A DNA stretch of 64,000 nucleotides from Acidimicrobiales bacterium. GTDB lineage: Bacteria; Actinomycetota; Acidimicrobiia; Acidimicrobiales; Iamiaceae. The DNA is taken from NCBI GenBank assembly GCA_035630295.1, contig DASQKY010000030.1:1426-65425 (forward strand), given 5' to 3'. The notes under the pieces were generated by a model. The model was not told where the DNA came from and made no database searches. It worked only from the letters and a program-made list of their open reading frames with translations. Made by a program: the position numbers and the translations under genes. Positions 15,965-55,186 of the stretch are shown here, piece after piece; within the stretch, counting starts at the first letter, position 1; the number at the start of each line of letters is the position of its first letter.

Positions 15965-16123
15965 CCACGCCGCCAGCTCCCCGGCCGCGAGGGCACGAAC
16001 GGGGGTCATGCGGGCTCAGCCCTTTGCACGGGACCGGCGGTGTGCTTGTGTGGGAGACGGCGTTCAGCACCGAGGGCCTTCCCATCGATCCGGCCATCCC
16101 CGAGGCCGGTGGAAGCAGGAAGC

Positions 16124-17065
16124 ATGTCCACGCTGGCCCCCTCGACGTCAGGGACCCCTGACGCCCCTTCGCCCCCCCCTCCCGCGGACGAGGCGGACCT
16201 CCGCGCCCTCTGCGCCCGCCGCCGAGACGAGCTTCGCCGCCGCCTCGACACCCTGGCCGATCGCCTCGACGTCGGCCGGGCCTGGCGGACGGTCCCCCTC
16301 GGGGACTCGGCCCGCGACCCGCGCCGCACGCCGGGGGTCGACATCGGCACCTGGATCCTCCACGTTCGCTACCAGCGCACGCGCGACGAGGCCGTGCTGG
16401 CCGCCCTGGTGGAGGAGTACACGCCCTACGCCACCGCCATCGCCCGCCGCCTGCACCGCGGCGGGGAGCCGAACGAGGACATCCACCAGGTGGCCATGGA
16501 GGCTCTGGTGACGTCGCTTTCGCGCTTCGACGTGGCCCGCCGGCGGCCTTTCCCGGCCTACGCCACCCCGACCATCACCGGGGCGGTCAAGCGCCACTAC
16601 CGGGACCGGGGCTGGAGCATCCGCACCTCTCGGGTGGTGCACGACACCGCCGGCCCCCTCCGGGAGGCCGAGGACCGCCTGGGCCGCACCCTGGGCCGAC
16701 CCCCCACGCCGTCCGAGCTGGCCGCCGAGATGGGCATCGACGAGGCCACGGTGACCGAGACCCAGCTCGCCACCCGGGCCCGGGCCGTCACCTCGCTCGA
16801 CCGCCCGGCCGTGGAGGGGGGCCAGCCGCTGGCCGAGTCCATCGGGGCCGCCGACGACGACCTCCTGCGGGCCGAGAACCGGGTGGCGCTGGTCGACGCC
16901 CTCTCCGACCTGGACGAACGGGACCGGACCGTGCTCACCCTGTACTACTTCGAGGAGATGTCGCAGCGGCAGATCGCCGAGCGCTACGGCGTCAGCCAGA
17001 TGCAGGTGTCACGCTGGCTGTCGAGCATCCTCGCCCGGCTGCGACAGCGCCTGGTGGCGGCGTGA
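16124..17065 (+). CDS. SigB/SigF-family RNA polymerase sigma factor (copy 1)
   Basis: EDIHQVAMEALV..L.RFD, FPAYATPTITGAVKRHYRD.GWSIR, PTPSELAAEMG, SLD, LSDLDERDR..L.LYYFEEMSQRQIA...GVSQMQVSR. Confidence 0.92.
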   Translation: MSTLAPSTSGTPDAPSPPPPADEADLRALCARRRDELRRRLDTLADRLDVGRAWRTVPLGDSARDPRRTPGVDIGTWILHVRYQRTRDEAVLAALVEEYTPYATAIARRLHRGGEPNEDIHQVAMEALVTSLSRFDVARRRPFPAYATPTITGAVKRHYRDRGWSIRTSRVVHDTAGPLREAEDRLGRTLGRPPTPSELAAEMGIDEATVTETQLATRARAVTSLDRPAVEGGQPLAESIGAADDDLLRAENRVALVDALSDLDERDRTVLTLYYFEEMSQRQIAERYGVSQMQVSRWLSSILARLRQRLVAA

Positions 17066-17593
17066 GCGAGCGGGGGGCCGCCGGCCGGCCGAGCGGACCA
17101 GGACCACGGCGTCGACCCGCTCCGAGCGGGCGCCCCGGGCGGGGTGGGCGGTGAAGTCCTCGGCGCCCTCCACCTCCACCGGCGGGGGGGCCCCGGTGAG
17201 GTCGACCTCGTCGCCGGCCAGGAGCCGACGGGCGGCGGCGGCCAGAGCGGCGGCGGGCAGGTCCCGACCCCGGAGGGACGAGAGCGAGCGCCCCACGGCC
17301 TGGGCCGCCGGGGTGCCGTAGGCCTCCTCGGCCCCGTGGCTCCAAGCCTGGACCCGCAGGTCGGGGCCGACCACCAGGAGGACGGTGTCGCACCAGCCCA
17401 GCACCTGGTCGAGGAGGTCGTGCAGGGCGTCGACCTGGGCCACGCGCTGGCGGACCTCGTCGTTGAGCCGAGCCGCCTCCGCCGCGGCCTCGTCCAGCAC
17501 CCGCTCGGCCCGCTGCATCTCCTCGACGAGGGCCTGCAGTTCGGCGGCGGCGGGGTCGAGCTCGTCGGCCCCTTCGGTGGCATCCGGTCCCAT
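17009..17593 (-). CDS. Coiled-coil + PAS domain protein with no output domain
   Basis: ELQALVEEMQRAE...LNDEVRQR coil, then VLLVVGPDLRVQAWSHGAEEAYG..AAQAVGRSL (PAS; resembles the CheR-associated PAS region). Overlaps the sigma 3' end by 57 bp. Confidence 0.65.
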   Translation of the reverse strand: MGPDATEGADELDPAAAELQALVEEMQRAERVLDEAAAEAARLNDEVRQRVAQVDALHDLLDQVLGWCDTVLLVVGPDLRVQAWSHGAEEAYGTPAAQAVGRSLSSLRGRDLPAAALAAAARRLLAGDEVDLTGAPPPVEVEGAEDFTAHPARGARSERVDAVVLVRSAGRRPPARSRRHQALSQPGEDARQPA

Positions 17594-17603
17594 GGGCCGG
17601 CCC

Positions 17604-17628
17604 TCGCCCGGCGGGGCGCGCCGAAACC
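17604..17628 (-). promoter_or_regulatory. Putative SigB/SigF-type promoter (GGTTT-N14-GGGCGA)
   Basis: Ends 11 nt above ATG 17593. Confidence 0.5.
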
Positions 17629-17747
17629 GCGACCACCCGGCGGAGGGCTGCGGGGCGTGGGTCCTTGACCCGCCGACCCATCGTCCGTACCGTCCGCGGG
17701 GCGAGTTCAACCGGCAGCTCCCGCCCCCCGCCTCCCCCCCGAGCGCC

Positions 17748-18122
17748 ATGAGCCCCCCACCGCCCCGCCTCGTCGTGTCCGTCGACCGGGCCGTCGTGCC
17801 CGTGCTGCACCTCGACGGCATCCTCGACCAGCGCACCACCCCCCTCCTCCGGGCCGAGGCCGCCCGGGTCCTGGTCGACCAGCCCCAGGACGTCGTGCTG
17901 GAGTGCCGCGGCCTCCTCGACGTGGACGCGGCCGGGCTCCGGACCCTCCTCGACATCCGTCGCCACCTCCCCCACCCCGGGGAGCTGCTGGTGGTCGGGG
18001 CGTCGGACACGCTGCGCGAGCTGCTCCGGGTCACCGCCCTGGACCAGAGCGTCCACGTCATCGCCCCCGGCCACGCCGAGGCCGCTGGCGACACCGCGGG
18101 CGCCGATCCCACTCGGGTCTGA
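17748..18122 (+). CDS. STAS anti-sigma-factor antagonist
   Basis: VLHLDGILD..T.P.LR, VVLEC.GL..VDAAGL..L, LRELLRVTALD. Asp is present but Ala replaces the usual phosphoacceptor Ser (DAAG). Confidence 0.8.
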   Translation: MSPPPPRLVVSVDRAVVPVLHLDGILDQRTTPLLRAEAARVLVDQPQDVVLECRGLLDVDAAGLRTLLDIRRHLPHPGELLVVGASDTLRELLRVTALDQSVHVIAPGHAEAAGDTAGADPTRV

Positions 18123-18390
18123 CCCACCTCCGAGCGCGGTGCGTGGCTGTCGGGGGCCGTGGTAAGCGAACCTCGGGGAGGCGTCCGGTTCAAACCGAGA
18201 GCCGGGCGCCTCCCTCGGGGTGGCCCGGGGCAGGTCGCAGTGGTCCGGGTGTGACGTCTCCCGGAACTCGGGTGTGAGTCGCGACCGGACGGGGAACGGT
18301 TGGGGCCGCTGATGCCCTTCAAACCGCGAGCGGGCCAGCAGAGCGCGTCACCCCACGTCGACCCTGCCCTGTGCTTGCGAAGGAGTGCCC

Positions 18391-19257
18391 ATGACTCCCA
18401 CGTCCCACCTCGACCTCACCTCCGCCGCCGAGGACGCCGTCGTCGAGCGCACCATCCCCCGGGCTCTGTCCACCGAGTCCGCCAGTCCCCCTCCGGCGTG
18501 CGACGCCGACACGTGGCTGCTCCACGTCCGCTTCCAGCGCACCGGCTCCCCCGAGGCCCTGGAGGCGCTGGTGGAGGAGTACCGGGCCATGGCCCTCTCC
18601 CTGGCCCGCCGCATGCACCGCGGCGCCGAGCCCCTCGACGACCTCCAGCAGGTGGCGCTGGAGGCGCTGGTGCGCTGCCTGCGGGGCTTCGACTGCAACC
18701 AGAGCACCCCCTTCGTCGGCTACGCCACCCCCGCCATCCTGGGCGCCCTCAAGCGCCACTACCGCGACCACGGGTGGAGCCTGCGGGTCCCCCGCCGAGC
18801 CCACGAGCTGGCCGCCCCGGCCCGGGACGCCGACGAGCGCCTGACCGCCCAGCTGGGCCGGCGCCCGACCACGGCCGAGACGGCCGCCGCCCTGGGCGTG
18901 GACGCCCGGGAGCTGGAGGCGGCCGAGGCCGCTCGCCGAGCCCGGGGCCTGGTGCGCCTGGACGCCCCGGTCCACGTCGAGGACGGTGAGGGCCCCGGCC
19001 GGGACGTCCCGGTGCTGGAGGCCGGCTTCGACGAGGCCGAGAGCCACCTGGCCCTGTCCCGGGCGCTGCAGCACCTCGACGAGCGCGAGCGGACGGTGCT
19101 GGGCCTCTACTTCTTCGAGGACCTCACGCAGTCCGAGATCGCCCAGCGCTTCGGGGTCAGCCAGATGCAGGTGTCGCGCTGGATCCGGTCGTCCCTGGCC
19201 CGGCTGCGCAGCCGGATGGAGGCCGAGGACGGGACCCCCCTGGCCTGCGCCAGCTGA
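18391..19257 (+). CDS. SigB/SigF-family RNA polymerase sigma factor (copy 2)
   Basis: AAGGAG RBS. DDLQQVALEALV...RGFD, FVGYATPAILGALKRHYRD.GWSLR, YFFEDLTQSEIA..FGVSQMQVSR. Confidence 0.92.
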   Translation: MTPTSHLDLTSAAEDAVVERTIPRALSTESASPPPACDADTWLLHVRFQRTGSPEALEALVEEYRAMALSLARRMHRGAEPLDDLQQVALEALVRCLRGFDCNQSTPFVGYATPAILGALKRHYRDHGWSLRVPRRAHELAAPARDADERLTAQLGRRPTTAETAAALGVDARELEAAEAARRARGLVRLDAPVHVEDGEGPGRDVPVLEAGFDEAESHLALSRALQHLDERERTVLGLYFFEDLTQSEIAQRFGVSQMQVSRWIRSSLARLRSRMEAEDGTPLACAS

Positions 19258-19485: not shown

Positions 19486-21300
19486 TCAGCCGCCGACGGC
19501 CTCGGCGGTGGTGTTCACCGAGGTGCGGATCCGGGTCGCTTCCTTCTCGGTCCTGGCCACCAGGATCTTCTCGTCGGTGGTGGCCGCCCGGCCCAGCACG
19601 TCCAGGTAGGCCGCACCGGCCTGGTACCGCCCGGCCTCGGACGACCCCATCAACGAGCGGACCATGGTGTAGCGGGAGTACCCGCCGGCCAGCTGCGCGA
19701 CCCAGTAGCTGGAGGACGGCCCGTCGACGGGCCGGTTGAGGGTGACCTGGTAGGCCTTGGCCACGAAGGCCGTGTCGGTGTAGGCGTCGAAGGTGGAGGC
19801 GCTCATCATCTTGGCCACCAGGACGGTGTAGTCCCAGCCCGGCTTGGTCAGCTCCCCGGCCCAGAAGGCCAGGGCGCCGGCGTCCGGTGACCAGCCGAAG
19901 ACGGCCTGGTAGGCCCGGCGCACGGTCTGCTTCCGGCCGTCCAGGGAGGCCGTCAGGGAGGCCGAGAACGACCGGGTGCTGACCGTCCGGCCCTGCAACT
20001 TGGGCCGCCAGTGGTCCTTGGCTGCGGCGTCGGCCGAGAAGCCGAGCAGGGCGTCGTAGCTCCGGTCGATGTAGTTGTTGAGGTGGGTCGAGGCGTAGGT
20101 GCGCAGGTCGACGGCCAGCAGCCGGATCTCACCGGTGAAGATCACACCCAGGCGGTGGAAGTAGCTGACCATCAGGACCCCGTCCGAGGACAGCTCGGGG
20201 TGCTGGGTCCACGCGTAGTCGCCGAAGGAGCCGTCGTCGTAGTACGGCAGGCCGGTCACGAACTGCTGCGGCGCCGACCACGGTCCCCAGGGGTTGTCGG
20301 CGGTCCGGAAGCGGGACGTGTGGCCGATGCCGTCCAGGGCCAGGTACTTGCCCAGGGTGGCGTTCCACGCCACGTCGGCGCCCCCCAGGATCCCGGGGAA
20401 CACGGTGACGGTCTGGTTGGGGTCCGAGCTCCACCCCGAGCCGTCCCAGTACCGGTAGGCGCCCCGGGTGCCGGCGTCGCTCAGGAGCACCCGGGCCACG
20501 CCCACCGGGCTGCCCTGGGCCGGGTCGGGGAGCGAAGGCCGCCGGGGGCAGTAGTCCTTCTCGGCCTCGGGGGAGGTGAGGTCGGCGTAGGTGTAGAGGT
20601 AGCCGTCCTGGGCCGCGAACTGCGCCGACCACTGGCAGTCCTCCCCGCCGAAGAGCAGGGTGGCGCGCCGGTCGGCCCGCAGGTCGTTGTTGTCGAGGTC
20701 GGCGGCGCTGATGTCGGCGATGCCCACCCCCCGTGAGCCGCTCTCGAAGACGCCGTTCACCGTCTTGCCCCGCAGGAAGAAGATCATGGCGTCCTGGGTC
20801 CCGCCCGGGATCACGGCCGAGGGCCAGGTGATGTAGCGGGTCCCGGCCTGCCCGGCGTGCTGGGCGTTGAAGCTCTCCTCGGCCGCCGTGTACGGGACGA
20901 GCAGGTCGGCGGGCCCCCCGGTCGAGTCCAGCGGCTCGGTCAGCGGGTAGTAGCCGGGGCCGTTGACGGCCCCGGTGTTCGAGAGGCCGGACTTCCCGTC
21001 GGCGTTGGCGGGGTTCATGATCGTGTCGCCGAAGGTCCACAGGGATCGGCCGTCGACCAGGCCCGACTCCAGGCCGTCCCGGCTCAGCACGTTGCCGGGC
21101 TGGCCCAGCACGCCGAGGTCGTAGGCCGGGTAGGCGTCGTTGGCGGGGTTGCCCGACACCGTCGGGGGCAGCAGGCGGAGGCCGCCCGACACCGGCCCCC
21201 CCAGTGGCCCGGCGGGCACCGGCCCGCTGCCGGACGCCACCAGCACGAGGGTGACGATGAGGGTGATGGCCGATCCGCCGGCACGTCTGTGAACGCGCAC
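19486..21300 (-). CDS. Secreted DUF4185 (beta-propeller glycoside hydrolase-like) protein with C-terminal DUF4214 surface-anchor repeats
   Basis: GGAGGA RBS, GTG 21300, signal peptide. RDG.....DG..LWTFGDT, DGYLY.Y, YRYWDG.GWS, VAWN..LGKY, A..PWGPWS, HPEL; repeats of Y..(L/F)G..pD.....W. Confidence 0.7.
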   Translation of the reverse strand: MRVHRRAGGSAITLIVTLVLVASGSGPVPAGPLGGPVSGGLRLLPPTVSGNPANDAYPAYDLGVLGQPGNVLSRDGLESGLVDGRSLWTFGDTIMNPANADGKSGLSNTGAVNGPGYYPLTEPLDSTGGPADLLVPYTAAEESFNAQHAGQAGTRYITWPSAVIPGGTQDAMIFFLRGKTVNGVFESGSRGVGIADISAADLDNNDLRADRRATLLFGGEDCQWSAQFAAQDGYLYTYADLTSPEAEKDYCPRRPSLPDPAQGSPVGVARVLLSDAGTRGAYRYWDGSGWSSDPNQTVTVFPGILGGADVAWNATLGKYLALDGIGHTSRFRTADNPWGPWSAPQQFVTGLPYYDDGSFGDYAWTQHPELSSDGVLMVSYFHRLGVIFTGEIRLLAVDLRTYASTHLNNYIDRSYDALLGFSADAAAKDHWRPKLQGRTVSTRSFSASLTASLDGRKQTVRRAYQAVFGWSPDAGALAFWAGELTKPGWDYTVLVAKMMSASTFDAYTDTAFVAKAYQVTLNRPVDGPSSSYWVAQLAGGYSRYTMVRSLMGSSEAGRYQAGAAYLDVLGRAATTDEKILVARTEKEATRIRTSVNTTAEAVGG

Positions 21301-21415
21301 AGTTTCCTCCCTGAGGTCCCGCCACGAGCAGGGCACCCGCCGCGGGGCGGGGTCTACGTCAGCGAACATTGCTGAACTTGCGCGACGGCAAGGACCGAGG
21401 CCCGAGCGGCCGCCG

Positions 21416-21895
21416 TCAGGGCCGGAGCTCAGCGGCGGCCAAGGGCCCGGGGCGCACCAGGTCGAGGAACAGCAGCACGCCCAGGGCGGCCAGCGCCCCC
21501 TCCAGAGCCCGGCGGAAGTAGTGGGCCATCGACGCCGCCACGTCGTCCGGCAACGGCACCCCCAACACCGACCGCAGCGGCCCCTCGGCGCTGCACACCA
21601 GGGCCAGGGCCAACAGGCCGGCGTAGACGGCGGCCCGGGCCGCGGCCCCCCGGGGTGCCACCGCCCACCGGCCGTCGTCGCCCCGGTGGAGCCCGTGCAC
21701 CTGGTCGAGGACCAGCACCACCAGCAGCACGTTGACGAACGACTCCACCTGGAGGTCCCAGAACACCGCCAGGGACGAGCCCACGTCGTCACCGAGGACG
21801 GCCCGCCAGGCATCGTGGGTGCCGGCCCACCCCGAGAGCGGCATGCAGGCCAGGAGCACGGCCACGAACAGGCCCCGGCGGGCCCGAACGCTCAC
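21416..21895 (-). CDS. Hypothetical four-TM protein made of two copies of a roughly 75-aa module
   Basis: GTGA overlap with the upstream gene; two DD-x13-E-x11-LDxV modules. Confidence 0.65.
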   Translation of the reverse strand: MSVRARRGLFVAVLLACMPLSGWAGTHDAWRAVLGDDVGSSLAVFWDLQVESFVNVLLVVLVLDQVHGLHRGDDGRWAVAPRGAAARAAVYAGLLALALVCSAEGPLRSVLGVPLPDDVAASMAHYFRRALEGALAALGVLLFLDLVRPGPLAAAELRP

Positions 21896-22137
21896 CCTCG
21901 GGCCGCGGGGGCGTCGTCGGGGCGGGAGCGGTGCCGCAGCACGACGTCCAGGTAGAGGGCGATGGCGATGACGGAGATGGGCGCCTCGACGTTGGTGCGG
22001 ACGAAGGAGTAGAGGTCGGCCCCGGTGTCGTCGCCCAGCAGCGAGGTGAGGGCGTCCTCGAACCAGCTCTGGCACATGACCACCACGGCCAGGAGGGTGC
22101 CGCCGTAGAACAGCGTGCGGGCCAGCACGGGCCGCAT
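21892..22137 (-). CDS. Hypothetical two-TM protein (81 aa), single copy of the same module
   Basis: GAGGAGGAG RBS, ATG 22137; contains DD-x13-E-x11-LDVV. Confidence 0.7.
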   Translation of the reverse strand: MRPVLARTLFYGGTLLAVVVMCQSWFEDALTSLLGDDTGADLYSFVRTNVEAPISVIAIALYLDVVLRHRSRPDDAPAARG

Positions 22138-22189
22138 GGGCACTCCTCCTCGTCCGGTGGCGGACCGGTTCCGCACCCGGCCCGGGAGC

Positions 22190-23086
22190 CTAGGTGGCGG
22201 TGTGCCGACCGCCCGTCGCCGGCGGGGCACCCAGGTCGGCGTTGAGGTTCCCGGTCCGGAACCCCTCCAGGTCCAGCGTGACCCGGCGGTAGCCGGCGGC
22301 CCGCACCGCGTCGACCACCGGGCCCCGGGCCCCGACGACGGCCCCCAGGCGGTCGAGGGGCACCTCGACCCGGGCGGTGGCCCCGTGGTGGCGCACCCGC
22401 ACCTCGGCGAAGCCCAGAGCGCGGAGGGCGGCCTCGGCCCGCCCCACGCGATCCAGGGCCCCCACCGTGACCGGCGTGCCGTAGGGCAGGCGCGACGAGA
22501 GGCACGGCGCCGCCGGCCGGTCCCAGGTGCGCAGGCCCAGGGCCCGGGACGCGGCCCGGACCATGGCCTTGGTGAAGCCGGCCTCGACCAGGGGGAAGGC
22601 AGCCCCGGCCTCGGCCGCGGCCTGCTGGCCCGGGCGGTGGTCGGCCAGGTCGTCGACGTTGACCCCCAGCACCACCGTGGCCCGCCGCGCCACGGCCAGG
22701 GGGGCCAGTTCGTCCATCAGCGCCGTCTTGCACCACCGGCACCGGTCGCCGTCGTTGGCGACGTAGCGGGGGTCCTCCATCTCCGCGGTGGGCCGGGCCT
22801 CCCAGGCCAGACCCCACTCGGCGGCCAGCTCCCGGCAGTGGGCCAGCTCGTCGGGGGCCAGCGACGGCGACACCGCGGTGGCGGCCAGGGCCCGGGTCCC
22901 GAGGGTGGCGTGGGCCACCCAGGCCAGCAGGGCCGAGTCCACGCCCCCGCTGAAGGCCACGACCACCGCGCCCAGATCGCCCAGGCCCGACCGGAGGGCG
23001 GCCAACGGCACCCCCAGGTCGGCCGGGAGGGCGGCGCCGGCCGGATCGAGGGGGGCGTCCGTCGGGGGCACGGCGCCGGGAGGCAT
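22190..23086 (-). CDS. larE: LarE ATP-dependent sulfur transferase (NPN cofactor biosynthesis)
   Basis: PP-loop AFSGGVDS, NDGDRCRWCK, G.N.DDL.D.RPG, TWDRPAAPCLSSRLPYG, VRVRHHG..ARVE. Start is uncertain (23086 chosen). Confidence 0.9.
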   Translation of the reverse strand: MPPGAVPPTDAPLDPAGAALPADLGVPLAALRSGLGDLGAVVVAFSGGVDSALLAWVAHATLGTRALAATAVSPSLAPDELAHCRELAAEWGLAWEARPTAEMEDPRYVANDGDRCRWCKTALMDELAPLAVARRATVVLGVNVDDLADHRPGQQAAAEAGAAFPLVEAGFTKAMVRAASRALGLRTWDRPAAPCLSSRLPYGTPVTVGALDRVGRAEAALRALGFAEVRVRHHGATARVEVPLDRLGAVVGARGPVVDAVRAAGYRRVTLDLEGFRTGNLNADLGAPPATGGRHTAT

Positions 23087-23204
23087 GGGGCCAGTGTGGC
23101 CCAGACGGGGGGCGGGCGACCCCACGAAACGGTCCCCGGCCGCCCGCCCCGGCGCCGGTGGTGGCCGAGATCGTGGGACATCTGTCATTGCCGCCACGGC
23201 GGGG

Positions 23205-24176
23205 ATGGGTCACCATCACCCCGTGCCCGCTCCCCGCCCGGTGGTCGTCGTGGCCTACGACGCTCTCAACTCCCTGGACCTGTCGGGCCCCGTCGAGGTG
23301 TTCCACACCGCCGGCGGCTACGACCTCACCATCGCCGCCCCCCACCCCGGGCCGGTCACCTCCACCAGCGGGCTCCGGGTGGCGGTGGACACCACCCTGG
23401 CCGAGGTCTGCGGGCCCATCGACACCCTGCTGGTGGTGGGGGGCGAGGGCGCCCGGGCCGCGGTGGCCGACCCCGACGTGGTGGCCGCCGTCCGGCGCCT
23501 CTCGGGCCGGGCCCGGCGCACCGCCTCGGTGTGCTCGGGCGCCTTCGTCCTGGCCGCCGCCGGCCTCCTGGACGGGCGGCGGGCCACCACCCACTGGTCG
23601 GTGTGCGACCTGCTGGCCGCCACCTTCCCCGCCGTGGACGTGGCCGCCGACCCCATCTACGTCCGGGACGGCGACATCTGGACCTCGGCCGGCGTCACCG
23701 CCGGGATGGACCTGGCCCTGGCCCTGGTGGAGGACGACCGGGGCCGTGACGTGGCCCTGGCCGTGGCCCGCCAGCTCGTCCTGTTCCTGCACCGGCCCGG
23801 GAACCAGCGCCAGTTCTCGGCCCAGCTCGACGCGCAGCTGGCCGACCGCGACGCGCTCCGCGACCTGCAGGCCCACATCGTCGACCACCCCGAGGACGAC
23901 CTCACGGTGGCCGCCCTGGCCCGCCGGGCCGGCCTGAGCGAGCGCCACCTGGCCCGCTGCTTCACCGACGAGGTGGGGGTCACCCCGGCGCGCTACGTGG
24001 AGCGGGCCCGGGTCGAGGCCGCCCGCCGGCGGCTGGAGGACACCGACGACGCGGTCGCGGTGGTCGCCGCCACCTGCGGCTTCGGCACCGCCGAGACCCT
24101 GCGCCGCACCTTCCTCCGCGCCGTCCGCACCACCCCCACCGAGTACCGGCGGCGGTTCCGCACCGCCTCGGCCTGA
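23205..24176 (+). CDS. GlxA-family (DJ-1/PfpI + AraC HTH) transcriptional regulator
   Basis: LDLSGPVEVF, SVCSGAF.LA..GLLDGRRATTHW, TSAGVTAGMDLAL, RPGNQRQFS, LSERHL.R.F, CGFGTAETLRR.F. Confidence 0.92.
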   Translation: MGHHHPVPAPRPVVVVAYDALNSLDLSGPVEVFHTAGGYDLTIAAPHPGPVTSTSGLRVAVDTTLAEVCGPIDTLLVVGGEGARAAVADPDVVAAVRRLSGRARRTASVCSGAFVLAAAGLLDGRRATTHWSVCDLLAATFPAVDVAADPIYVRDGDIWTSAGVTAGMDLALALVEDDRGRDVALAVARQLVLFLHRPGNQRQFSAQLDAQLADRDALRDLQAHIVDHPEDDLTVAALARRAGLSERHLARCFTDEVGVTPARYVERARVEAARRRLEDTDDAVAVVAATCGFGTAETLRRTFLRAVRTTPTEYRRRFRTASA

Positions 24177-24191
24177 CCCAGGAGACATCCC

Positions 24192-24833
24192 ATGGACATC
24201 GCCATCCTGCTCTACGACGGCTTCACCGCCCTCGACGCCGTCGGCCCCTACGAGGTGCTGGTCCGGGTGCCCGGGGCCACCGTCACCTTCGTGGCCACCG
24301 AGGCCGGGCCGATCCGCACCGACACCCGCCGCCTGGAGGTCACCGCCGACGCCGCCCTGGCCGACCTGGCCTCCCCCGACATCGTGGTCGTGCCCGGTGG
24401 GCCCGGCCAGGAGGACCACATGGGCGACGAGGCCGTCCTGGGCTGGCTGCGGGCCGCGGATGCCACCGCCCGGTGGACCACGTCGGTGTGCACCGGCTCG
24501 CTCCTCCTGGCTGCCGCCGGCCTCCTGGAGGGCAAGCGGGCCACCTCCCACTGGTTGGCCGTGGACCGCCTGGCCGACTTCGGGGCCGTCCCCACCGCCG
24601 AGCGGGTGGTAGTCGAGGGCCGCACCATCACCGCGGCCGGGGTCAGCGCCGGCATCGACATGGCCCTCCACCTGGTGGCGGCCGAGGCCGGTGACGTGGT
24701 GGCGCAGGCCATCCAGCTCGGCATCGAGTACGACCCCCAGCCCCCCTTCGCAGCCGGCTCCCCCACCACCGCCCCGGCCGAGATCACCGACTTCCTCCGG
24801 GCCAACAGCCGCCACGTGCTGGAACGGAGCTGA
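24192..24833 (+). CDS. DJ-1/PfpI family protein (isonitrile hydratase InhA-like)
   Basis: AGGAGA RBS. LDAVGPYE, VPGG, TSVCTGS, TAAGVSAGID, QLGIEYDPQPPF.AGSP. Confidence 0.9.
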   Translation: MDIAILLYDGFTALDAVGPYEVLVRVPGATVTFVATEAGPIRTDTRRLEVTADAALADLASPDIVVVPGGPGQEDHMGDEAVLGWLRAADATARWTTSVCTGSLLLAAAGLLEGKRATSHWLAVDRLADFGAVPTAERVVVEGRTITAAGVSAGIDMALHLVAAEAGDVVAQAIQLGIEYDPQPPFAAGSPTTAPAEITDFLRANSRHVLERS

Positions 24834-24868
24834 CCGCCGCTGGGCCGCCGGGGGCCCCGGCGGCCAGG

Positions 24869-25639
24869 ATGGGCGCCGTGGACGAGGGTGCCCTCCGGGA
24901 CCTCCTGGTCGCGGTGCGTGACGGCGAGGTCACGGCCGACGACGCCGTGGCCCGGCTCCGCCGGCTCCCGTTCGCCGACCTGGGCTTCGCCCGGGTCGAC
25001 CACCACCGCACCCTGCGCACCGGGCTGCCCGAGGCGGTGTACGGCCCGGGCAAGACCCCCGAGCAGTGCGCCGCCCTGGTGGGCGAGCTGCTGGCCGGCG
25101 GCGACGGGCCGGTGCTGCTGACCCGGGCCGACGGCGCCCAGGCCGACGCGGCCCTGACCGCCCACCCCGGTGGGGTGGTGACCGGCGACCGGCACCGCCT
25201 GGTGGCCTGGCGCCCGGTCCCGCCCCGGGCCGCCCACGTGGTGGTGGTGGCGGCCGGCACCGCCGACCTGCCGGTGGCCGACGAGTGCGCGGCCACGCTC
25301 ACCGCCCTGGGCCTCCCCCCCGACCGCCTCACCGACGTGGGCGTGGCCGGGGTGCACCGCCTGCTGGCCGACGCCGACCGGCTGGCCGTGGCCGACGCCG
25401 TGGTGGTGGTGGCCGGCATGGAGGGGGCGCTGGCCAGCGTGGTCGGCGGCCTGGCCCCGGCCCCGGTGGTGGCCGTGCCCACCAGCGTGGGCTACGGCGC
25501 CGCCCTGGAGGGGGTGACCGCCCTGCTGGCCATGCTGTCGTCGTGCGCGGCGGGCGTCACCGTGGTGGGCATCGACAACGGGTACGGGGCGGCGTGCGCC
25601 GTGCGCCGCCTCCTGGGCCCGGTGTTGGCCCGTGGCTGA
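24869..25639 (+). CDS. larB: LarB (PurE/AIR-carboxylase-like; NPN cofactor biosynthesis)
   Basis: DLGFARVDHHR..R.G.PE.VYG.GKT, AAGTADLPVA.E, DVGVAGVHRL, AGMEGAL.SVVGGL, VPTSVGYG, VVGIDNGYGAA. Confidence 0.93.
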   Translation: MGAVDEGALRDLLVAVRDGEVTADDAVARLRRLPFADLGFARVDHHRTLRTGLPEAVYGPGKTPEQCAALVGELLAGGDGPVLLTRADGAQADAALTAHPGGVVTGDRHRLVAWRPVPPRAAHVVVVAAGTADLPVADECAATLTALGLPPDRLTDVGVAGVHRLLADADRLAVADAVVVVAGMEGALASVVGGLAPAPVVAVPTSVGYGAALEGVTALLAMLSSCAAGVTVVGIDNGYGAACAVRRLLGPVLARG

Positions 25640-26861
25640 GGACCGCCCCGGCGCCGACGGCCTGGACGGCTCGGGCGGGGAGCGCACCGTGGCCTGGTTC
25701 CACTGCTTCGCCGGGGTGGCCGGCGACATGGCCCTGGGGGCCCTGGTCGACGCCGGGGCCGACCTGGCCGAGGTCGAGGCCCTCGTCCGCCGCCTGCCCG
25801 TCGAGGGCTGGACCCTGGAGGCCGAGCCCGTCCTGCGGGGTGGGGTGGCCGCCACCCAGGTCCACGTCCGGCTCCCGGCCGCCGAGCACCACCACCGCAC
25901 CTGGGGCACCGTTCGGGCCCTGCTGGAGGGGGCCGGCCTGCCGGAGCGGGTCCGCACCCGGGCCACCGCCACCTTCGCCGTCCTGGCCCGGGCCGAGGGG
26001 GCGCTCCACCGGATGCCCCCCGAGGACGTCCACTTCCACGAGGTGGGCGCGGTCGACGCCCTGGTCGACGTGGTGGGCACCTGCGCGGCCCTGGAGGTGC
26101 TGGGCGTGGACGACGTGGCCTGCTCGCCGGTGGCCGTGGGCCGGGGCACCGTCCGGGCCGCCCACGGCACCCTGCCCAACCCGGCCCCGGCCGTGGTGCG
26201 GATCCTGGCCGAGGCGGGGGCGCCGGTCCACGGCGTGGACTCCCCGGTCGAGCTGACCACCCCCACCGGGGCGGCCCTCATGGCCGCCCTGGCCTCGACC
26301 TTCGGGCCCGTCCCCGCCCTGGCCCTGCGGGCCACCGGCTTCGGGGCCGGCACCGCGGACCCCGACGGCACGGTCAACGCCACCCAGGTGGTGATCGGCC
26401 GGGCCGCCCCCACCGGCCCGGCCACCGGGGCCGGCCAGCCCGTGGTGGTGGTGGAGGCCACCCTGGACGACGCCACCGGCGAGGTGCTGGGAGCGGCGGT
26501 GCCCGCCCTGCTGGCCGCCGGGGCCCATGACGCCTGGATCACCCCGGTGGTCATGAAGAAGGGCCGGCCCGGCCACGTCGTCTCCGCCCTGGCCGACGAG
26601 GGCCGGGCCGCGGCGGTGGCCGAGGCTCTGCGGTCCGCCACCGGCAGCCTCGGGGTCCGGGCCGCCACCCACCGGCGCTGGCCGGCCCAGCGGGCCACCG
26701 CCGAGGTCGAGGTGGACGGCCACCGGGTGCGGGTCAAGGTCTCCCCGGTGCGGGCCAAGGCCGAGCACGACGACGTGGTGGCCGCGGCCGCGGCGCTCGG
26801 GCTCTCACCGGTCGAGGTGGCGGCCCGGGCCGAAGCCGCCTGGTGGTCCTCCCACCCCTGA
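25632..26861 (+). CDS. larC: LarC nickel-insertion protein
   Basis: HCFAGVAGDMALGAL.D, HHH, VHFHEVGAVDA.VD, P.PAPA, ELTTPTGAAL, E.TLDD.TGE, MKKGRPG, AEHDD. Confidence 0.93.
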   Translation: MAEDRPGADGLDGSGGERTVAWFHCFAGVAGDMALGALVDAGADLAEVEALVRRLPVEGWTLEAEPVLRGGVAATQVHVRLPAAEHHHRTWGTVRALLEGAGLPERVRTRATATFAVLARAEGALHRMPPEDVHFHEVGAVDALVDVVGTCAALEVLGVDDVACSPVAVGRGTVRAAHGTLPNPAPAVVRILAEAGAPVHGVDSPVELTTPTGAALMAALASTFGPVPALALRATGFGAGTADPDGTVNATQVVIGRAAPTGPATGAGQPVVVVEATLDDATGEVLGAAVPALLAAGAHDAWITPVVMKKGRPGHVVSALADEGRAAAVAEALRSATGSLGVRAATHRRWPAQRATAEVEVDGHRVRVKVSPVRAKAEHDDVVAAAAALGLSPVEVAARAEAAWWSSHP

Positions 26862-26930
26862 CCCCACCAACTTCGGACCGGAGTCCGCCCCGGTCGTCTC
26901 TGGTCCGAGGTTCGGGGCGATGGTGGCGGG

Positions 26931-28547
<1,617 letters not shown>

Positions 28548-41937: not shown

Positions 41938-42060
41938 GGCCCGCACGTCTAGCAGACCGTGACCGCTCGTCCCAGCGCCCGAGGGCCCGGTCGGGCCGGC
42001 CCGGACGGCCACTAGCATCGGGGAGGTCATGCACCCGGGCCCCGACCAGCCGGCGCTCCG

Positions 42061-44886
42061 GTGACCGCTCTCCTCCTGGTCCACCTGGCCTCCGGCCTGG
42101 CCGCGGTGGCCTGGGGGGCCCGGCTGGGGCGACGGGCCCTGCTGCTCGGCGCACTGGGCCCGCTGGCCACCTCGGCCTGGCTGGCCACCCAGCTCCCCGG
42201 CGTGCTCGACGGCCGCCCGGTGGTCGAGGCCATCAGCTGGGTGCCGGCGCTGGGGATCGACCTCGACCTGCGCCTCGACGGGCTGGCCGCCCTCATGGTC
42301 GTGCTGGTGGCCGGCATCGGCGTGCTGGTCGTGGCCTACGCGGCCCGCTACCTGCCGGCCCAGGGGCCGGGGCTGGGCCGCATGGTCGGCCTGCTGGCCC
42401 TGTTCTCCGGGTCGATGCTGGGCCTGGTGGTGGCCGACAACCTGCTCGTCCTCTACGGGTTCTGGGAGCTGACGTCGGTCACGTCGTTCCTGCTCATCGG
42501 CAACGACCACCGCGACGGCAAGGCCCGGGCCGCCGCCCTCCAGGCCCTGCTGGTCACCGGGGCCGGGGGCCTGGCCATGCTGGCCGGGTTCGTGGCCCTG
42601 GGCCAGGCCGCCGGCACCTACCGGATCAGCGCCCTGCTGGCCGACCCGCCCGAGGTGGGCACCACGGTGGCCGCCGCCCTGGTGCTGATCCTGCTGGGGG
42701 CGTTCACCAAGTCGGCCCAGTACCCGTTCCACGGCTGGCTGCCCGGGGCCATGGTGGCCCCGACCCCGGTGAGCGCCTACCTGCACTCGGCCACCATGGT
42801 GAAGGCCGGCGTCTACCTGGTGGCCCGGCTGGCCCCCGCCTTCGCCGAGGTCGGGCTGTGGCGCCCCCTGGTTGTCACCGTGGGCATCGTCACCATGATC
42901 GGTGGTGGGCTGCGGGCCCTGCGCCAGACCGACCTGAAGCTCCTCCTGGCCCTGGGCACGGTCAGCCAGCTCGGCTTCATGACCGCGGTGTTCGGGTGGG
43001 GCACTCCCGAGGCCATGGCCGCCGGGTGCGTGCTGCTGCTGGGCCACGGGGCGTTCAAGGCCGCGGCCTTCATGGTGGTGGGCATCGTCGACCACCAGCG
43101 GGGCACGCGCGACGTGCGCCTGCTCCCCCGGCCCGGCCCGGGGTGGGGGCTGGTCGTGGCCGCCACCCTGGTGGCCGCCGGGTCCATGGCCGGGCTGCCC
43201 CTGGCCCTGGGCTTCGTGGGCAAGGAGGCCGCCTTCGCCGCCCTCGACCACGCCGGGGGCACCAGCGCCGCCCTGGCCCTGGCCGGCGTGGTGGCCGGCT
43301 CGATCCTGACCGCGGGCTACAGCGCCCGGTTCGCGGCGGGAGTCCTGGGCCGGCTGTCCCCCCCCGGCACCGCGGCCCCGGCCGGCGACCACGGCCCGCC
43401 CCCGTTCTCCTTCGTGGCCCCGGCCCTGGTCCTGAGCGGGGCCACGCTGGCCCTGGGCCTGGCCCCCGGCCTGGCCGACGGGCTGGTGGGCCGGGCCACC
43501 GACTCGCTGGCGCCCGGGGGCGAGGCCGTCCACCTCGCCCTCTGGCACGGCCTCGCCACCCCCCTGCTGCTCTCGGCGGTGGCCGTGGCCGGGGGCGCCG
43601 GCCTCCACCTCCTGCGCCGGGCCGTCGAGCCGGTCCTGGCCGCCGGGCACTTCGCCCTGGCCAGCTCGGCCGGCCTCTACGGCTGGTCCCTGCGGGGCCT
43701 GAACACGCTGGCCGACCGGGTCACCGGGGTGTCCCAACCGGGCTCGCTGCCCATCTACGTCGGGGTCATCGCCCTCACCGCCGCGGTGGTGCCCGGCGCC
43801 CTCCTGGTGTCGGGGCCGTGGTGGGGGGGCTGGCCCGAGCTGGTGGCCACCCCGGCCCACGTGCCGGTGGTGGCCCTGGTGGTGGGGGCCGCCCTGGCCG
43901 CCGCCCTGGTGCGCCGGCGCTTCACCGCCGCCCTGTTCCTGGGGGTGGCCGGCTACGCCATGGCCGGGCTGTTCGTGGTCCAGGGGGCCCCCGACCTGGC
44001 CCTCACCCAGGTGGCCATCGAGACCCTGACCACGGTGCTGTTCGTGCTCGTCCTGCGCCGCCTGCCCGACCGCTTCGAGCAGCGGACCCCGGCCGGGCGC
44101 CGGGCCCTGCGGCTGGCCGTGGCCGGTGGCGTGGGCCTCACCGTGTTCCTGCTGGCCTTGTCCACCGGGGCCGAGGACCCCCCCACCCCGGCCTCGGACA
44201 CCATGGTCGAGCAGGCCCTGCCCGCCGGCCAGGGCCGGAACGTGGTCAACGTGATCCTGGTCGACTTCCGGGGCTTCGACACCCTGGGCGAGATCATCGT
44301 CCTCACCGCGGCGGCCATCGGCACCGTGGCCCTGGCCCGGGCCGGCCGGCGGCCGGTGGGGACGACGGGAGCGCCCGGGGGGGCCGGACGCCGCGCCCGG
44401 GGGCCCGTGCCCCCGCCGGTCCGGCTCAGCCGTTTGGTGACCCTCGAGGTGTCCACCCGGGTGGTGTTCACCGCGGTGATGGTGGGGTCGCTGTACCTCC
44501 TCTTCGCCGGCCACAACCAACCCGGGGGCGGCTTCGCCGGGGGCATCGTGGCCGGGGCGGCCGTCGCCCTGCGCTACGTCAACGGCGGCATCGCCGAGGT
44601 CCGACGCCTGTCCCGATCCCAGCCGTGGACGGTGCTGGGCAGCGGGGTGCTGATCGCCGCCGCGGTGGCCCTGGTGCCCCTCCTCCTGGGCGGGGCGGTG
44701 CTGGAGACCGGCTCGCTCACCCTCACGCCCCCGCTGCTGGGGACGGTCAAGCTCACCTCGGCCCTGGCCTTCGACGTCGGCGTGTACCTGGCCGTGGTGG
44801 GCCTGGCCCTCATGGTCTTCGAGTCCTTCGGCGACGACCCCCGCCCCGGCGACGACGCCCGCCCGAACCACGAGGCCCCGGTGTGA
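42061..44886 (+). CDS. mrpA: Mrp/Mnh Na+(K+)/H+ antiporter fused subunit A+B
   Basis: LDGLA..M, WELTSVTSFLLIG, AFTKSAQ.PFH.WLP.AM.APTPVSAYLHSATMVKAG, APDLALTQ, NVILVDFRGFDTLGE, GHNQPGGGF.GG, FD.GVY. Confidence 0.95.
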   Translation: MTALLLVHLASGLAAVAWGARLGRRALLLGALGPLATSAWLATQLPGVLDGRPVVEAISWVPALGIDLDLRLDGLAALMVVLVAGIGVLVVAYAARYLPAQGPGLGRMVGLLALFSGSMLGLVVADNLLVLYGFWELTSVTSFLLIGNDHRDGKARAAALQALLVTGAGGLAMLAGFVALGQAAGTYRISALLADPPEVGTTVAAALVLILLGAFTKSAQYPFHGWLPGAMVAPTPVSAYLHSATMVKAGVYLVARLAPAFAEVGLWRPLVVTVGIVTMIGGGLRALRQTDLKLLLALGTVSQLGFMTAVFGWGTPEAMAAGCVLLLGHGAFKAAAFMVVGIVDHQRGTRDVRLLPRPGPGWGLVVAATLVAAGSMAGLPLALGFVGKEAAFAALDHAGGTSAALALAGVVAGSILTAGYSARFAAGVLGRLSPPGTAAPAGDHGPPPFSFVAPALVLSGATLALGLAPGLADGLVGRATDSLAPGGEAVHLALWHGLATPLLLSAVAVAGGAGLHLLRRAVEPVLAAGHFALASSAGLYGWSLRGLNTLADRVTGVSQPGSLPIYVGVIALTAAVVPGALLVSGPWWGGWPELVATPAHVPVVALVVGAALAAALVRRRFTAALFLGVAGYAMAGLFVVQGAPDLALTQVAIETLTTVLFVLVLRRLPDRFEQRTPAGRRALRLAVAGGVGLTVFLLALSTGAEDPPTPASDTMVEQALPAGQGRNVVNVILVDFRGFDTLGEIIVLTAAAIGTVALARAGRRPVGTTGAPGGAGRRARGPVPPPVRLSRLVTLEVSTRVVFTAVMVGSLYLLFAGHNQPGGGFAGGIVAGAAVALRYVNGGIAEVRRLSRSQPWTVLGSGVLIAAAVALVPLLLGGAVLETGSLTLTPPLLGTVKLTSALAFDVGVYLAVVGLALMVFESFGDDPRPGDDARPNHEAPV

Positions 44887-45350
44887 GCGTGCTCATGGCC
44901 GCCACCGCGGCGCTGCTGTTCGCGCTGGGCACCTACCTGCTGCTCCAGCGCAAGCTGTCCCGCATCATCATCGGCATCGGGCTCCTGGGCCACGGGGCCA
45001 ACGTGCTGTTCGTCAACGCCGGCCGCCGGGGCCGGGCCCCGCTCATCGGGGGCGAGGTCGAGGACTTCGCCGATCCGCTGCCCCAGGCCCTGGTGCTGAC
45101 GGCCATCGTCATCAGCTTCGGGGTCACCGCCCTGCTGCTGGCCCTGGCCTACCGGAGCTGGGTGCTGACCGACGACGACGAGGTGGCCGACGACGTGGAG
45201 GACCGCTCGGTGGCCCGCCACGGCTACGCCGACCGGGAGCTGGCCGACGACGCCGAGCTGGCCACCGCGGTGGCGGCCACCACCGAGGAGGCCGTCCCGG
45301 CGCCGGCCTCCGGCGCCCGCCCCGAGCCCGAGCCCGAGGGGCCCGCGTGA
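44883..45350 (+). CDS. mrpC: Mrp antiporter subunit C
   Basis: GTGA overlap. G.YLLL.R...RII.G..LL.H..N, DPLPQALVLTAIVISFG.TA. Confidence 0.93.
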   Translation: MSVLMAATAALLFALGTYLLLQRKLSRIIIGIGLLGHGANVLFVNAGRRGRAPLIGGEVEDFADPLPQALVLTAIVISFGVTALLLALAYRSWVLTDDDEVADDVEDRSVARHGYADRELADDAELATAVAATTEEAVPAPASGARPEPEPEGPA

Positions 45351-46906: not shown

Positions 46907-47436
46907 CCCGCGTCGCCTACGCCGTGGCCCTGGCCACCATCTGGGTCCTGGCCTGGGGATCGCCGTCGCCGGCCAACGTCCTGGGGGGGCTGGTGGTGGC
47001 GTCCGTGCTCATCGCCGTGGCCCCCGACACCTGGCCCGCCAGCCGCCGGCTCCGGCTCCGCCCGGTGGCGGCGGCCCGCTTCGCCGCCTACGTGGTGGCC
47101 AAGGCGGTCGAGTCCAACGTGGTCATCACCCGGGAGATCCTGAGCCGCGGCTCTCGGATCCACACCGGGGTGGTGGCCGTCGAGCTCCCCGACTGCTCCG
47201 ACGGGCTCCTCACCCTGATCGCCAACGTCATGGCCCTGACCCCGGGCACCATGCCCCTGGAGGTGACCCAGGGCCCGACGGTGCTCTACGTGCACGTCCT
47301 CCACCTGCACGACGTGGAGGCCACCCGGGCCGAGATCCGCCACCTGGCTGCCCTGGCCTACCGGGCCTTCGGCTCCGCCGCCGCGGTGGCCGCCCTGGAG
47401 GGCGCCCCCGGCCCCGGCCCCGGAGAGGTCCCGTGA
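46903..47436 (+). CDS. mrpE: Mrp antiporter subunit E
   Basis: GTGA overlap. ESNV.I, ANVMALTPGT, LYVHVL. Confidence 0.9.
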   Translation: MTRVAYAVALATIWVLAWGSPSPANVLGGLVVASVLIAVAPDTWPASRRLRLRPVAAARFAAYVVAKAVESNVVITREILSRGSRIHTGVVAVELPDCSDGLLTLIANVMALTPGTMPLEVTQGPTVLYVHVLHLHDVEATRAEIRHLAALAYRAFGSAAAVAALEGAPGPGPGEVP

Positions 47437-47684
47437 CCCCGCTGACCTACGCCGTCCTGGTGGTGGCCTTCGCCCTGTTCACCGTGCGCCTGGGCCGGGG
47501 GCCGTCGCTGGCCGACCGCGTGCTGGCCGTGGACGGCATGCTGGTGGCCGGGGTGGGCATCCTCCTGGTCAACGCCATGGACACCGGCCGGGGCGCCTTC
47601 CTCCAGGTGGCGGTGCTGCTGACCCTGGTCGGGTTCATCAGCACCGCGGTGATCGCCCGCTTCATCGAGGGGCGGGGCGAGTGA
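47433..47684 (+). CDS. mrpF: Mrp antiporter subunit F
   Basis: RL.RGPSLADRV.A.D, L.L.GFIST...ARFI. Confidence 0.9.
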   Translation: MTPLTYAVLVVAFALFTVRLGRGPSLADRVLAVDGMLVAGVGILLVNAMDTGRGAFLQVAVLLTLVGFISTAVIARFIEGRGE

Positions 47685-49737: not shown

Positions 49738-49780
49738 CACGGGCCTCCGGGTCGGGGTGGGCGGGGAAGGGACGGCGTGC

Positions 49781-55029: not shown

Positions 55030-55186
55030 ACTGCAAGGTGTTGGCCGGGCACTGTAGGACATCACCGCCGGCTGTGCCGGACGGCACGCCGAGGGGGCCT
55101 GGACCGTCTACCTACCGGTCGGTAGGCTGGGCGCCGGTCCTCCGCGACCGGCCTCCCCCACCCCCCGACGGCGCCCCCCGGGCGCG

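Follow-up and report, generated by a model that had tools for sequence, protein, structure and literature searches.

The window, a stretch of 64,000 nucleotides from an Acidimicrobiales genome of the family Iamiaceae, carries larE on the minus strand, divergent from a same-strand row of four genes, glxA-ich-larB-larC, whose gaps are 15, 35 and -8 nt (Table 1). A sequence-only reading of this DNA had described this arrangement, and all five genes were confirmed in place. The larE start was set by a conserved CCAGTGTG motif that abuts the start of larE in relatives. Elsewhere in the window, membrane-protein genes account for an odd AT skew at 42-55 kb.

Table 1. Features at and around the larE-larBC locus, in positions of the window
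Feature	Position	Strand	Evidence
larE	22190-23086 (probable ATG 23086); longest ORF 22190-23197	-	TIGR00268 278.9 bits, cut-off 150
larE-glxA intergenic region	23087-23204		DNA alignment with G131, L005, L037, L038
glxA-like AraC-family regulator, part of insert	23205-24176 (probable ATG 23205); within ORF 22788-24176	+	Pfam DJ-1_PfpI 105.2, HTH_18 82.1 bits
DJ-1/PfpI protein, predicted isocyanide hydratase (InhA/ICH) clade, part of insert	24192-24833	+	DJ-1/PfpI 104 bits
Spacer from ICH stop to larB start, 35 nt	24834-24868		Spacer comparison with relatives
larB	24869-25639	+	NF033503 236.3 bits, cut-off 175; AIRC fold
larC, single ORF, 8-nt overlap with larB	25632-26861	+	PF01969 401.6 bits
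DUF5522 gene (context marker only)	26931-27140	-	PF17653 68.3 bits
RlmD-like rRNA methyltransferase (synteny marker)	27212-28408	-	TIGR00479 191.9 bits

The lar genes form a real, complete and ordinary gene set for synthesis of the nickel-pincer nucleotide (NPN). LarB and LarE pass their curated cut-offs, and LarC, the sole LarC of the genome, combines in one ORF the LarC1 (TIGR00299, 188.5 bits against a cut-off of 90) and LarC2 (NF052512, 109.6 bits against 50) parts. LarE has an SGGxDS PP-loop (SGGVDS, residues 83-88 in the numbering of the 335-aa ORF, used throughout) and three cysteines, Cys153 and Cys156 in RCRWCK and Cys232 in PCLSSR, which make up a CXXC-C motif, the CXXC plus distal Cys of the [4Fe-4S]-type enzymes. 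They align with the three cysteines of PDB 8cnz, which we take to be the [4Fe-4S] LarE of Methanococcus maripaludis. Alignment with LarE of Lactiplantibacillus plantarum (PDB 5udq, 144 bits) places Cys232 one residue past Cys176 of that enzyme. These residues support the earlier proposal of an Fe-S type LarE, and the protein is predicted to be an ATP-dependent sulfur insertase of the three-Cys, CXXC-C type. The motif is not a distinguishing feature, since the majority of LarE homologues have it (PMC9283937). In the established pathway, with the roles of the lar enzymes as given in PMC7583248, LarB, a predicted NaAD carboxylase/hydrolase, would carboxylate and hydrolyse NaAD to make P2CMN; the CXXC-C LarE would insert two sulfurs via its [4Fe-4S] cluster with no Cys sacrificed; and LarC, a predicted CTP-dependent nickel insertase, would then insert nickel. 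For nickel uptake, the genome has one CbiM/NikM-type gene (C9:10059-10679) and no NicO or HupE/UreJ gene.

The absence of a LarA gene from the window, also pointed out earlier, was borne out. In a Lar_N profile search over the whole genome, which is 96% complete, the single match (147.7 bits) sits on another contig, C27. This sole LarA-superfamily homologue returned by the genome search that the sequence-only reading had called for is a 530-aa protein that scores 898 bits on the NCBIfam model NF052592, LarAH14/15/16 (cut-off 740; model positions 2-519 of 520), and 81.3 bits on the canonical LarA model NF033504 (cut-off 460). LarA_C (PF21113) has no match in the genome. By score and residue equivalents the protein belongs with LarAH14/15/16 and not with canonical lactate racemase LarA. 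It is assigned to Group 14 LarAH, a known orphan family of Desguin 2020 (PMC7583248), on the basis of the curated model for the family together with the published entry in Dataset S2. D82/D83, H125, N190, K201 and H215-217 do not vary across the 20 orthologues compared; D82/D83, H125, K201 and H217 (Lys+16) are the equivalents of D72, H108, K184 and H200, and there is no His within residues 184-199 of the orthologues, i.e., no H174 equivalent. The LarAH keeps the putative NPN-tethering Lys, the nickel-binding His and one catalytic His and, because the second catalytic His is missing, is probably not a racemase. It sits in a conserved TetR / acyl-reductase-HAD / Zn-ADH / LarAH cluster. Literature searches on a reductase-LarAH link and on lactate racemase in Acidimicrobiia found nothing relevant. 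The earlier view that NPN lacks a recognisable client here is not supported, given this gene. The suggestion that NPN serves a "distant or unknown apo-enzyme" stands in part: the LarAH is a non-canonical orphan, but a member of the LarA superfamily does exist.

Among 151 genomes of the order, 117 have both Lar_N and LarC, 17 have Lar_N only, four have LarC only and 13 have neither. A Lar_N gene is thus present in 117 of the 121 LarC-positive genomes, and in 134 of 151 overall. One of the LarC-only genomes (G007) has fragmented larC copies only and the other three are 88-93% complete, so that an intact LarC without Lar_N was seen in no complete genome sampled. On one contig (L072), larE-larB-larC directly adjoin a LarAH (63% identity) and its Zn-ADH. 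The co-occurrence is weak evidence because LarAH is near-universal and related genomes are not independent. Moreover, four genomes (G064, G095, G106 and G009; 96-98% complete, in 2-6 contigs) are Lar_N-positive with no LarB, LarC or LarE above cut-off. Orthologues aligned from LarC-negative genomes (G064, G095, G106 and G122) keep every putative NPN-binding residue. Thus, the enzyme evidently can persist without in-house NPN synthesis.

This persistence of a LarAH with intact Lys and His in near-complete genomes without larB, larC and larE favors a different view, in which the Group 14 LarAH makes no use of NPN, which instead serves another, still unrecognised apo-enzyme; in addition, the available part of PMC7583248 records neither activity nor cofactor loading for Group 14. 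We consider this unlikely, in view of the lack of any intact LarC without Lar_N in the complete genomes sampled, the arrangement at L072, and the absence of DUF362, an alternative client candidate, from the host genome. Furthermore, clustering of the larBC neighbors over 79 loci gave genes of housekeeping or variable type (divergent pheA at 56, a metallo-beta-lactamase-fold gene at 21, others scattered) and no recurring candidate client. A more far-reaching proposal, which is speculative and rather unlikely, is that nothing in the order other than the Group 14 LarAH uses NPN, and that this LarAH, kept where larBCE has been lost, is a non-racemase that would carry out one-way hydride transfer in the conserved TetR/acyl-reductase-HAD/Zn-ADH pathway. 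If so, organisms without larBCE would either obtain finished NPN from neighbors (NPN auxotrophy) or have a LarAH that works without NPN; in the latter case the larBCE of the window would feed an unrecognised client.

The two genes between larE and larB are of a different kind. The DJ-1 protein matches Pseudomonas fluorescens isocyanide hydratase (PDB 3non/6ni5) with 166-168 bits over residues 3-205; this near-full-length similarity takes in the C-terminal extension and the nucleophile Cys of SVCTGS, which aligns with that of the hydratase structures. On the glyoxalase III model TIGR01383 it scores 68.7 bits, below the cut-off of 131.25, and it is placed in the isocyanide hydratase (ICH) clade, not with glyoxalase III. 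The D-lactate link that had been suggested through glyoxalase III is not supported by these scores. A D-lactate tie between the DJ-1 protein and a racemase was likewise rejected, given the ICH-clade match and the tested Group 14 enzyme, for which lactate racemase activity was not seen according to the available part of PMC7583248. The regulator, with its DJ-1 + HTH_18 architecture, fits only the wider GlxA-type AraC class; it scores 250.1 bits on the FtrA model NF006902, below the cut-off of 425. ICH matches (E<=1e-20) occur in 69 of the 151 genomes. Each of the five best ICH loci (~3.6 kb) has a GlxA orthologue (58-67% identity) immediately upstream of ICH, and none has a Lar protein match. 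The most similar ICH, at 74% identity, comes from a different family; the same genus has one at another locus, with 52%. GlxA-ICH is a self-contained two-gene module that recurs away from lar genes.

At the window locus the pair is a ~1.75-kb insertion into a larE-larB spacer of ~80 nt, present in this genome alone among those examined. In a genome of the same genus (G131, locus L084) and in three close relatives (L005, L037 and L038; LarC 74-75% identical to that of the window), larE is directly divergent from larB, with gaps of 132-221 nt between the tblastn matches, and DUF5522 then RlmD follow beyond larC as in the window. GlxA and DJ-1 matches (E<=1e-8) were found at none of 80 larC loci. 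Alignment with these relatives shows both ends of the ancestral spacer flanking the insert: the first ~15 nt of the larE-glxA intergenic region (GGGGCCAGTGTGGCC) are its conserved larE-proximal end, and the 3' half of the ICH-larB spacer (CCCCGGCGGCCAGG) is its conserved larB-proximal end. The left edge of the insert is near 23102. The left side of the insert also contains GCGCCGGTGGTGG, a weak match to the larB start motif; this was considered as a target-site duplication and rejected as too weak in GC-rich DNA. Thus, "a simple insertion", one of two options that the sequence-only reading had offered for the pair, is borne out. That reading had also named two findings that would tell against it, a canonical larA elsewhere and absence of the pair from syntenic relatives. 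The second was made, but the LarA-type gene elsewhere is not canonical (81 vs 460 bits on NF033504, and no His174 equivalent).

Functional coupling of GlxA-ICH to NPN synthesis, whether by GlxA regulating larBC or by the DJ-1 enzyme supplying or detoxifying a pathway intermediate, is quite improbable. The tight same-strand spacing speaks for it, as does the lack of any terminator-like site on the plus strand in 22000-27300, including between ich and larB, the lone match being on the minus strand within larC. After the insertion, larBC expression probably does depend on transcription across the pair. A consensus promoter scan of the same interval gave 0 sites, which is uninformative at 77% GC. 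However, the arrangement occurs in one genome and is missing at all other larC loci compared, the same-genus genome included; the pair is widespread as a stand-alone module distant from lar genes; and the enzyme resembles ICH rather than glyoxalase III. That the pair is an assembly chimera of the metagenome bin (53 contigs, estimated contamination 3.5%) can practically be dismissed, since independent Logan contigs of 5139 nt (covering 22000-24251) and 575 nt (24708-25282), both from one soil-metagenome DNA run, span the left and right junctions with 0 differences at an even depth of ~33-37, and the conserved spacer remnants border the insert exactly. This run, probably the source sample, was the only DNA run with the stretch in a search over 22000-27000, and no RNA run was listed.

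The reading that we favor as likely is that of ordinary NPN genes, a chance GlxA-ICH insertion with no functional tie to NPN, and a Group 14 LarAH as the probable user of the cofactor. In the lineage of the host family, larE and larB-larC are divergent neighbors ~80 nt apart. A ~1.75-kb cassette of a GlxA-type AraC regulator and an ICH-type DJ-1 enzyme would have landed in this spacer, and read-through from the cassette, or else the old larB promoter, may now drive transcription of larBC. The NPN made would probably be used by the LarAH on contig C27, judged by sequence the only LarA-superfamily protein of the genome.

The locus is largely ordinary because the NPN genes are complete, the pair is an unrelated cassette and the likely user is a known LarAH. 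Two general points follow from it: where a cluster looks like "larBCE without larA", the whole genome should be searched before any new client is proposed, and an odd gene pair that sits within an operon can have got there recently and by chance. A third concerns the LarAH, a single-histidine orphan LarA relative that is near-universal in Acidimicrobiales and survives even where the cofactor genes are lost. Since it accompanies larC in nearly all LarC-positive genomes yet also occurs without the cofactor genes, the order is a good place for testing NPN use by Group 14 and the reaction it catalyzes.

The lar operon of L. plantarum comprises larA, larB, larC1/C2, larD and larE. The window likewise has LarB, LarC and LarE, all past curated cut-offs, but differs in four respects: i) neither larA nor larD adjoins larBCE, the LarAH being on a different contig; ii) LarC is encoded by a single ORF and not in two frames; iii) LarE carries the CXXC-C that the L. 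plantarum enzyme is without; and iv) a foreign gene pair separates larE from larBC. In its SGGxDS PP-loop, CXXC...C and offset third Cys, the window LarE resembles that of Thermotoga maritima, whose [4Fe-4S] enzyme has the third Cys one residue offset from L. plantarum Cys176 (PMC9283937). The inserted DJ-1 protein resembles P. fluorescens ICH in sequence over nearly its full length.

The best solved relatives of the LarAH are LarASp and LarABw (PDB 9q2u and 9q3j; 132 and 102 bits, both domains), single-histidine enzymes that PMC12611868, in the part available, places in Group 17 with glycolysis and carbohydrate gene neighbors. Like them, the LarAH is without the second catalytic His. Its invariant N190 lies in the same loop as their Asn (PMC12611868), an equivalence that is ambiguous because the LarAH loop is three residues shorter, and the lysine that replaces R75 in these enzymes aligns with a Leu. 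Frankia sp. Franean1_4168 LarAH14, inactive with NPN in vitro in all seven reactions assayed, has D/H/K/H and no H174 in Dataset S2 (PMC7583248). The LarAH closely resembles it in sequence, as judged by eye, and shares its D72, H108, K184 and H200 equivalents and the missing H174. The published Group 14 context (COG0560 HAD, COG1063 Zn-ADH and COG3320 thioester reductase; PMC7583248, Table S1) is found around the LarAH as well, except that a COG0204 acyltransferase was not detected beside it. The reductase-LarAH context is thus not new, having already appeared in Table S1 of Desguin 2020, and the HAD, Zn-ADH and thioester reductase of the host cluster match that description.

The five genes larE, glxA-like, DJ-1, larB and larC lie where a sequence-only reading had placed them, and profile matches agree. 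That observation is confirmed, and the interpretation built on it is partly supported. The window's lar genes are an ordinary set for synthesis of the nickel-pincer nucleotide (NPN), with LarB, LarE and LarC complete. LarE carries the PP-loop SGGVDS and Cys153, Cys156 and Cys232, which line up with their three counterparts in PDB 8cnz; this CXXC-C alignment bears out the predicted Fe-S type. Cys232 aligns one residue past Cys176 of the L. plantarum enzyme, the same offset as in the Thermotoga [4Fe-4S] LarE (PMC9283937). The CXXC-C motif is found in most LarE homologues (PMC9283937); the Fe-S type is therefore the norm and no peculiarity. The G+C content of the window DNA is 70-79%, and related loci are of Acidimicrobiales origin, the closest labeled Iamiaceae or Iamia. 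The STAS-domain gene, with one of two sigma factor genes on either side of it, lies just upstream of the DUF4185/DUF4214 gene. The AT skew, strong and of opposite sign in the 42-46 kb and 50-55 kb regions, has its source in membrane-protein genes: the plus strand carries an Mrp-type antiporter fusion, the minus strand a branched-chain permease and an MFS/ABC fusion ORF.

Features of the window and of the loci compared with it
Feature	Location	Strand	Match or remark
larE		minus	TIGR00268, 278.9 bits (cut-off 150)
GlxA/FtrA-type AraC regulator		plus	DJ-1_PfpI, 105 bits; HTH_18, 82 bits
DJ-1/PfpI protein			213 aa; same five-gene set
larB			NF033503, 236 bits (cut-off 175)
larC			PF01969, 401.6 bits; LarC1 and LarC2 in a single ORF; 8-nt overlap with larB
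Genes after larC			DUF5522, RlmD-like methyltransferase, clpP
larE-side element, CCAGTGTG	window 23087-23101
larB-side element, CCCGGCGGCCAGGATG	window, just before 24869
Outer spacer motif, CCCGGCGGCCAGG	window 24855-24871
larE-larB spacer motifs, G131	L084:11695-11775
SigB/SigF-type sigma factor genes	window 15965-17062, 18385-19257
STAS-domain anti-sigma-antagonist-like gene	window 17322-18119
DUF4185/DUF4214 protein gene	window 19486-21813	minus
AT-skew region	window 42016-55107
Lar_N match	C27:61315-61908		147.7 bits
Stretch near LarAH gene	L003:11825-14700 (G000:C27:62824-65699)	both	long ORFs
Matching stretch, same-genus genome	L086:3546-7113
lar locus with LarAH	L072:464-7027
larC copies, G007	C5:159164-160271; C10:6245-7374

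The glxA-like and DJ-1 genes form a cassette inserted between larE and larB. Neither protein was matched (tblastn, E<=1e-8) in any of 80 larC loci. In the same-genus genome G131 (L084) and at L005, L037 and L038, whose LarC is 74-75% identical to that of the window, larE is directly divergent from larB and DUF5522 and RlmD follow downstream as in the window; at L004 (LarC 77%) larB, larC and larE stand in a row and the pair is absent too. Aligned larE-larB spacers share one conserved element adjoining the larE start and one at the start of larB. Between the two, the window has ~1.75 kb: glxA and the DJ-1 gene behind a 118-nt leader. The insert's right end and the stop codon of the DJ-1 gene are within ~10 nt of each other. 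The simple insertion, one of the options originally offered, is supported, and among the genomes examined the cassette interrupts the NPN gene set in G000, the genome of the window, alone. An assembly chimera is ruled out because both junctions are bridged, with zero differences, by independent Logan contigs of the only DNA run containing the stretch, probably the sample of origin. In the close relatives (L084, L005, L037, L038) the spacer has CCAGTGTG by larE, and GGGTGGGTGG and CCCGGCGGCCAGG before the larB ATG; the window retains the outer motifs CCAGTGTG and CCCGGCGGCCAGG, not GGGTGGGTGG. These conserved motifs could serve as promoter or operator sequences.

Against structures of Pseudomonas isocyanide hydratase (ICH) the DJ-1 protein scores 166-168 bits, in an alignment that spans almost all of it and takes in the nucleophile Cys. 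An ICH match at E<=1e-20 is present in 69 of 151 genomes of the order (G039 and G135 included), and in about 20 a second DJ-1-domain match, the GlxA partner, lies no more than ~1.1 kb away. Each of the five best ICH loci has a GlxA orthologue of 58-67% identity immediately upstream of the ICH gene, and Lar proteins gave no match within 1.5 kb on either side of that gene. The best ICH identity, 74%, is to a genome of a different family, and the copy in the same-genus genome, which sits elsewhere, is just 52% identical. Either movement of the cassette within the order or differential retention of a paralogue would account for this. No link between the GlxA-ICH pair and NPN chemistry was found, and the pair is regarded as an unrelated regulator-enzyme cassette.

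The absence of a LarA gene from the window, noticed at the outset, is borne out: a search of the whole G000 assembly (3.33 Mb, 53 contigs, 96% complete, 3.5% contamination) with Lar_N, the N-terminal domain model, gave a single match, on contig C27. The ORF there encodes a LarA-superfamily protein (LarAH) of 530 aa, which scores 898 bits against NCBIfam NF052592 ('NPN-dependent hydroxyacid isomerase, LarAH14/15/16 family'; cut-off 740) and only 81 bits against the lactate racemase model (cut-off 460). LarA_C Pfam and DUF362 have no match in the genome. The closest solved structures are single-histidine LarAHs, 9q2u (132 bits) and 9q3j (102 bits); canonical LarA, 5huq, scores 45 bits. Twenty sequences were aligned: the query, one orthologue on L072, and those of 18 genomes of the order picked by long contigs before any look at LarAH neighbours. 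The orthologues are 63-90% identical to the query, and all 20 agree at 184 of 530 positions, among them D82/D83, H125, N190, K201 and H215-H217; from position 184 to 199, none of the 20 carries a His. G000 thus has one LarA-family gene, with conserved residues. Downstream of it, a stretch of about 2.8 kb contains long ORFs but no Pfam match and no clear codon-position GC signal; its counterpart in the same-genus genome is likewise unassigned.

Co-occurrence was surveyed in the 151 genomes, each at least 80% complete, by cross-tabulating lists by hand. Lar_N is present in 134 and LarC in 121: both in 117, Lar_N without LarC in 17, LarC without Lar_N in four, and neither in 13. The 117 include three unpublished genomes (G039, G062, G135), on none of which any claim rests singly. 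The LarC-only genomes are G007, with larC copies broken up and some with stop codons, and G040, G041 and G123, at 88-93% completeness; a solid case of intact larC without LarAH was therefore not seen among the 151 genomes. Both G007 copies are in pieces, one with in-frame stops, and look like decay after client loss, or frameshifts. Contig L072, labeled as a Thermomonospora sp. MAG, has larE, larB (two tblastn pieces) and larC (residues 19-256 only matched), and directly beside them a Group 14 LarAH (63% identity) and a Zn-ADH on the opposite strand; it is the only one of 80 related larC loci with a LarAH match. Among the larBC neighbours at 79 loci, pheA is divergent in 56, the others are variable, and no other candidate client was found.

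The reverse case covers 17 of the 134 Lar_N-positive genomes. Four genomes at least 96% complete (96-98%) in 2-6 contigs (G064, G095, G106, G009) are Lar_N-positive and LarC-negative, with neither LarB nor LarE at cut-off, and G100 keeps LarE alone. Other such LarC-negative genomes include G122 and G035; LarAH loci of this class are L093, L094, L100 and L101. In the LarAHs of G064, G095, G106 and G122 every putative cofactor-binding residue is intact by alignment, these being the counterparts of the NPN-binding Lys, His and Asp residues of LarA. Genomes lacking LarC, LarB and LarE yet keeping a LarAH with these residues speak against the client reading; the C27 LarAH, a known orphan LarA relative, is judged a probable NPN client. 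The persistence of this orphan in relatives that lost the cofactor genes is worth specialist attention.

By the established pathway (PMC7583248, PMC9283937), LarB would convert NaAD to P2CMN, Fe-S LarE would add two sulfurs catalytically, with a cysteine desulfurase as sulfur source, and LarC would insert nickel. By analogy, the cofactor would be tethered at Lys201 of LarAH with His217 on the nickel. The sole nickel-uptake candidate found in G000 is a CbiM/NikM-type transporter gene; NicO and HupE/UreJ are absent by profile search. Judging by spacing, glxA, the hydratase gene, larB and larC may now form one transcript.

The LarAH gene is preceded in 18/18 genomes by a gene for an 812-aa reductase-phosphatase fusion (NAD_binding_4 and HAD-IB), with a Zn-ADH gene in between in 10 and a divergent TetR gene at the locus in 11. 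Table S1 of Desguin et al. (2020; PMC7583248) already gives COG0560, COG1063 and COG3320 as Group 14 context, so both the protein and its surroundings were already known; Table S3 there lists the group as 'Unknown function'. The proposed D-lactate link of the DJ-1 protein fails on both sides: that protein scores 68.7 bits against the glyoxalase III model (cut-off 131), and the tested Group 14 enzyme, Frankia LarAH14, was inactive in all seven reactions tested (PMC7583248). Judged by eye only, the C27 LarAH bears a close likeness to this Frankia 'LarAH14' (Dataset S2, PMC7583248), whose signature is D72=D, H108=H, H174 missing, K184=K, H200=H and K298=N.
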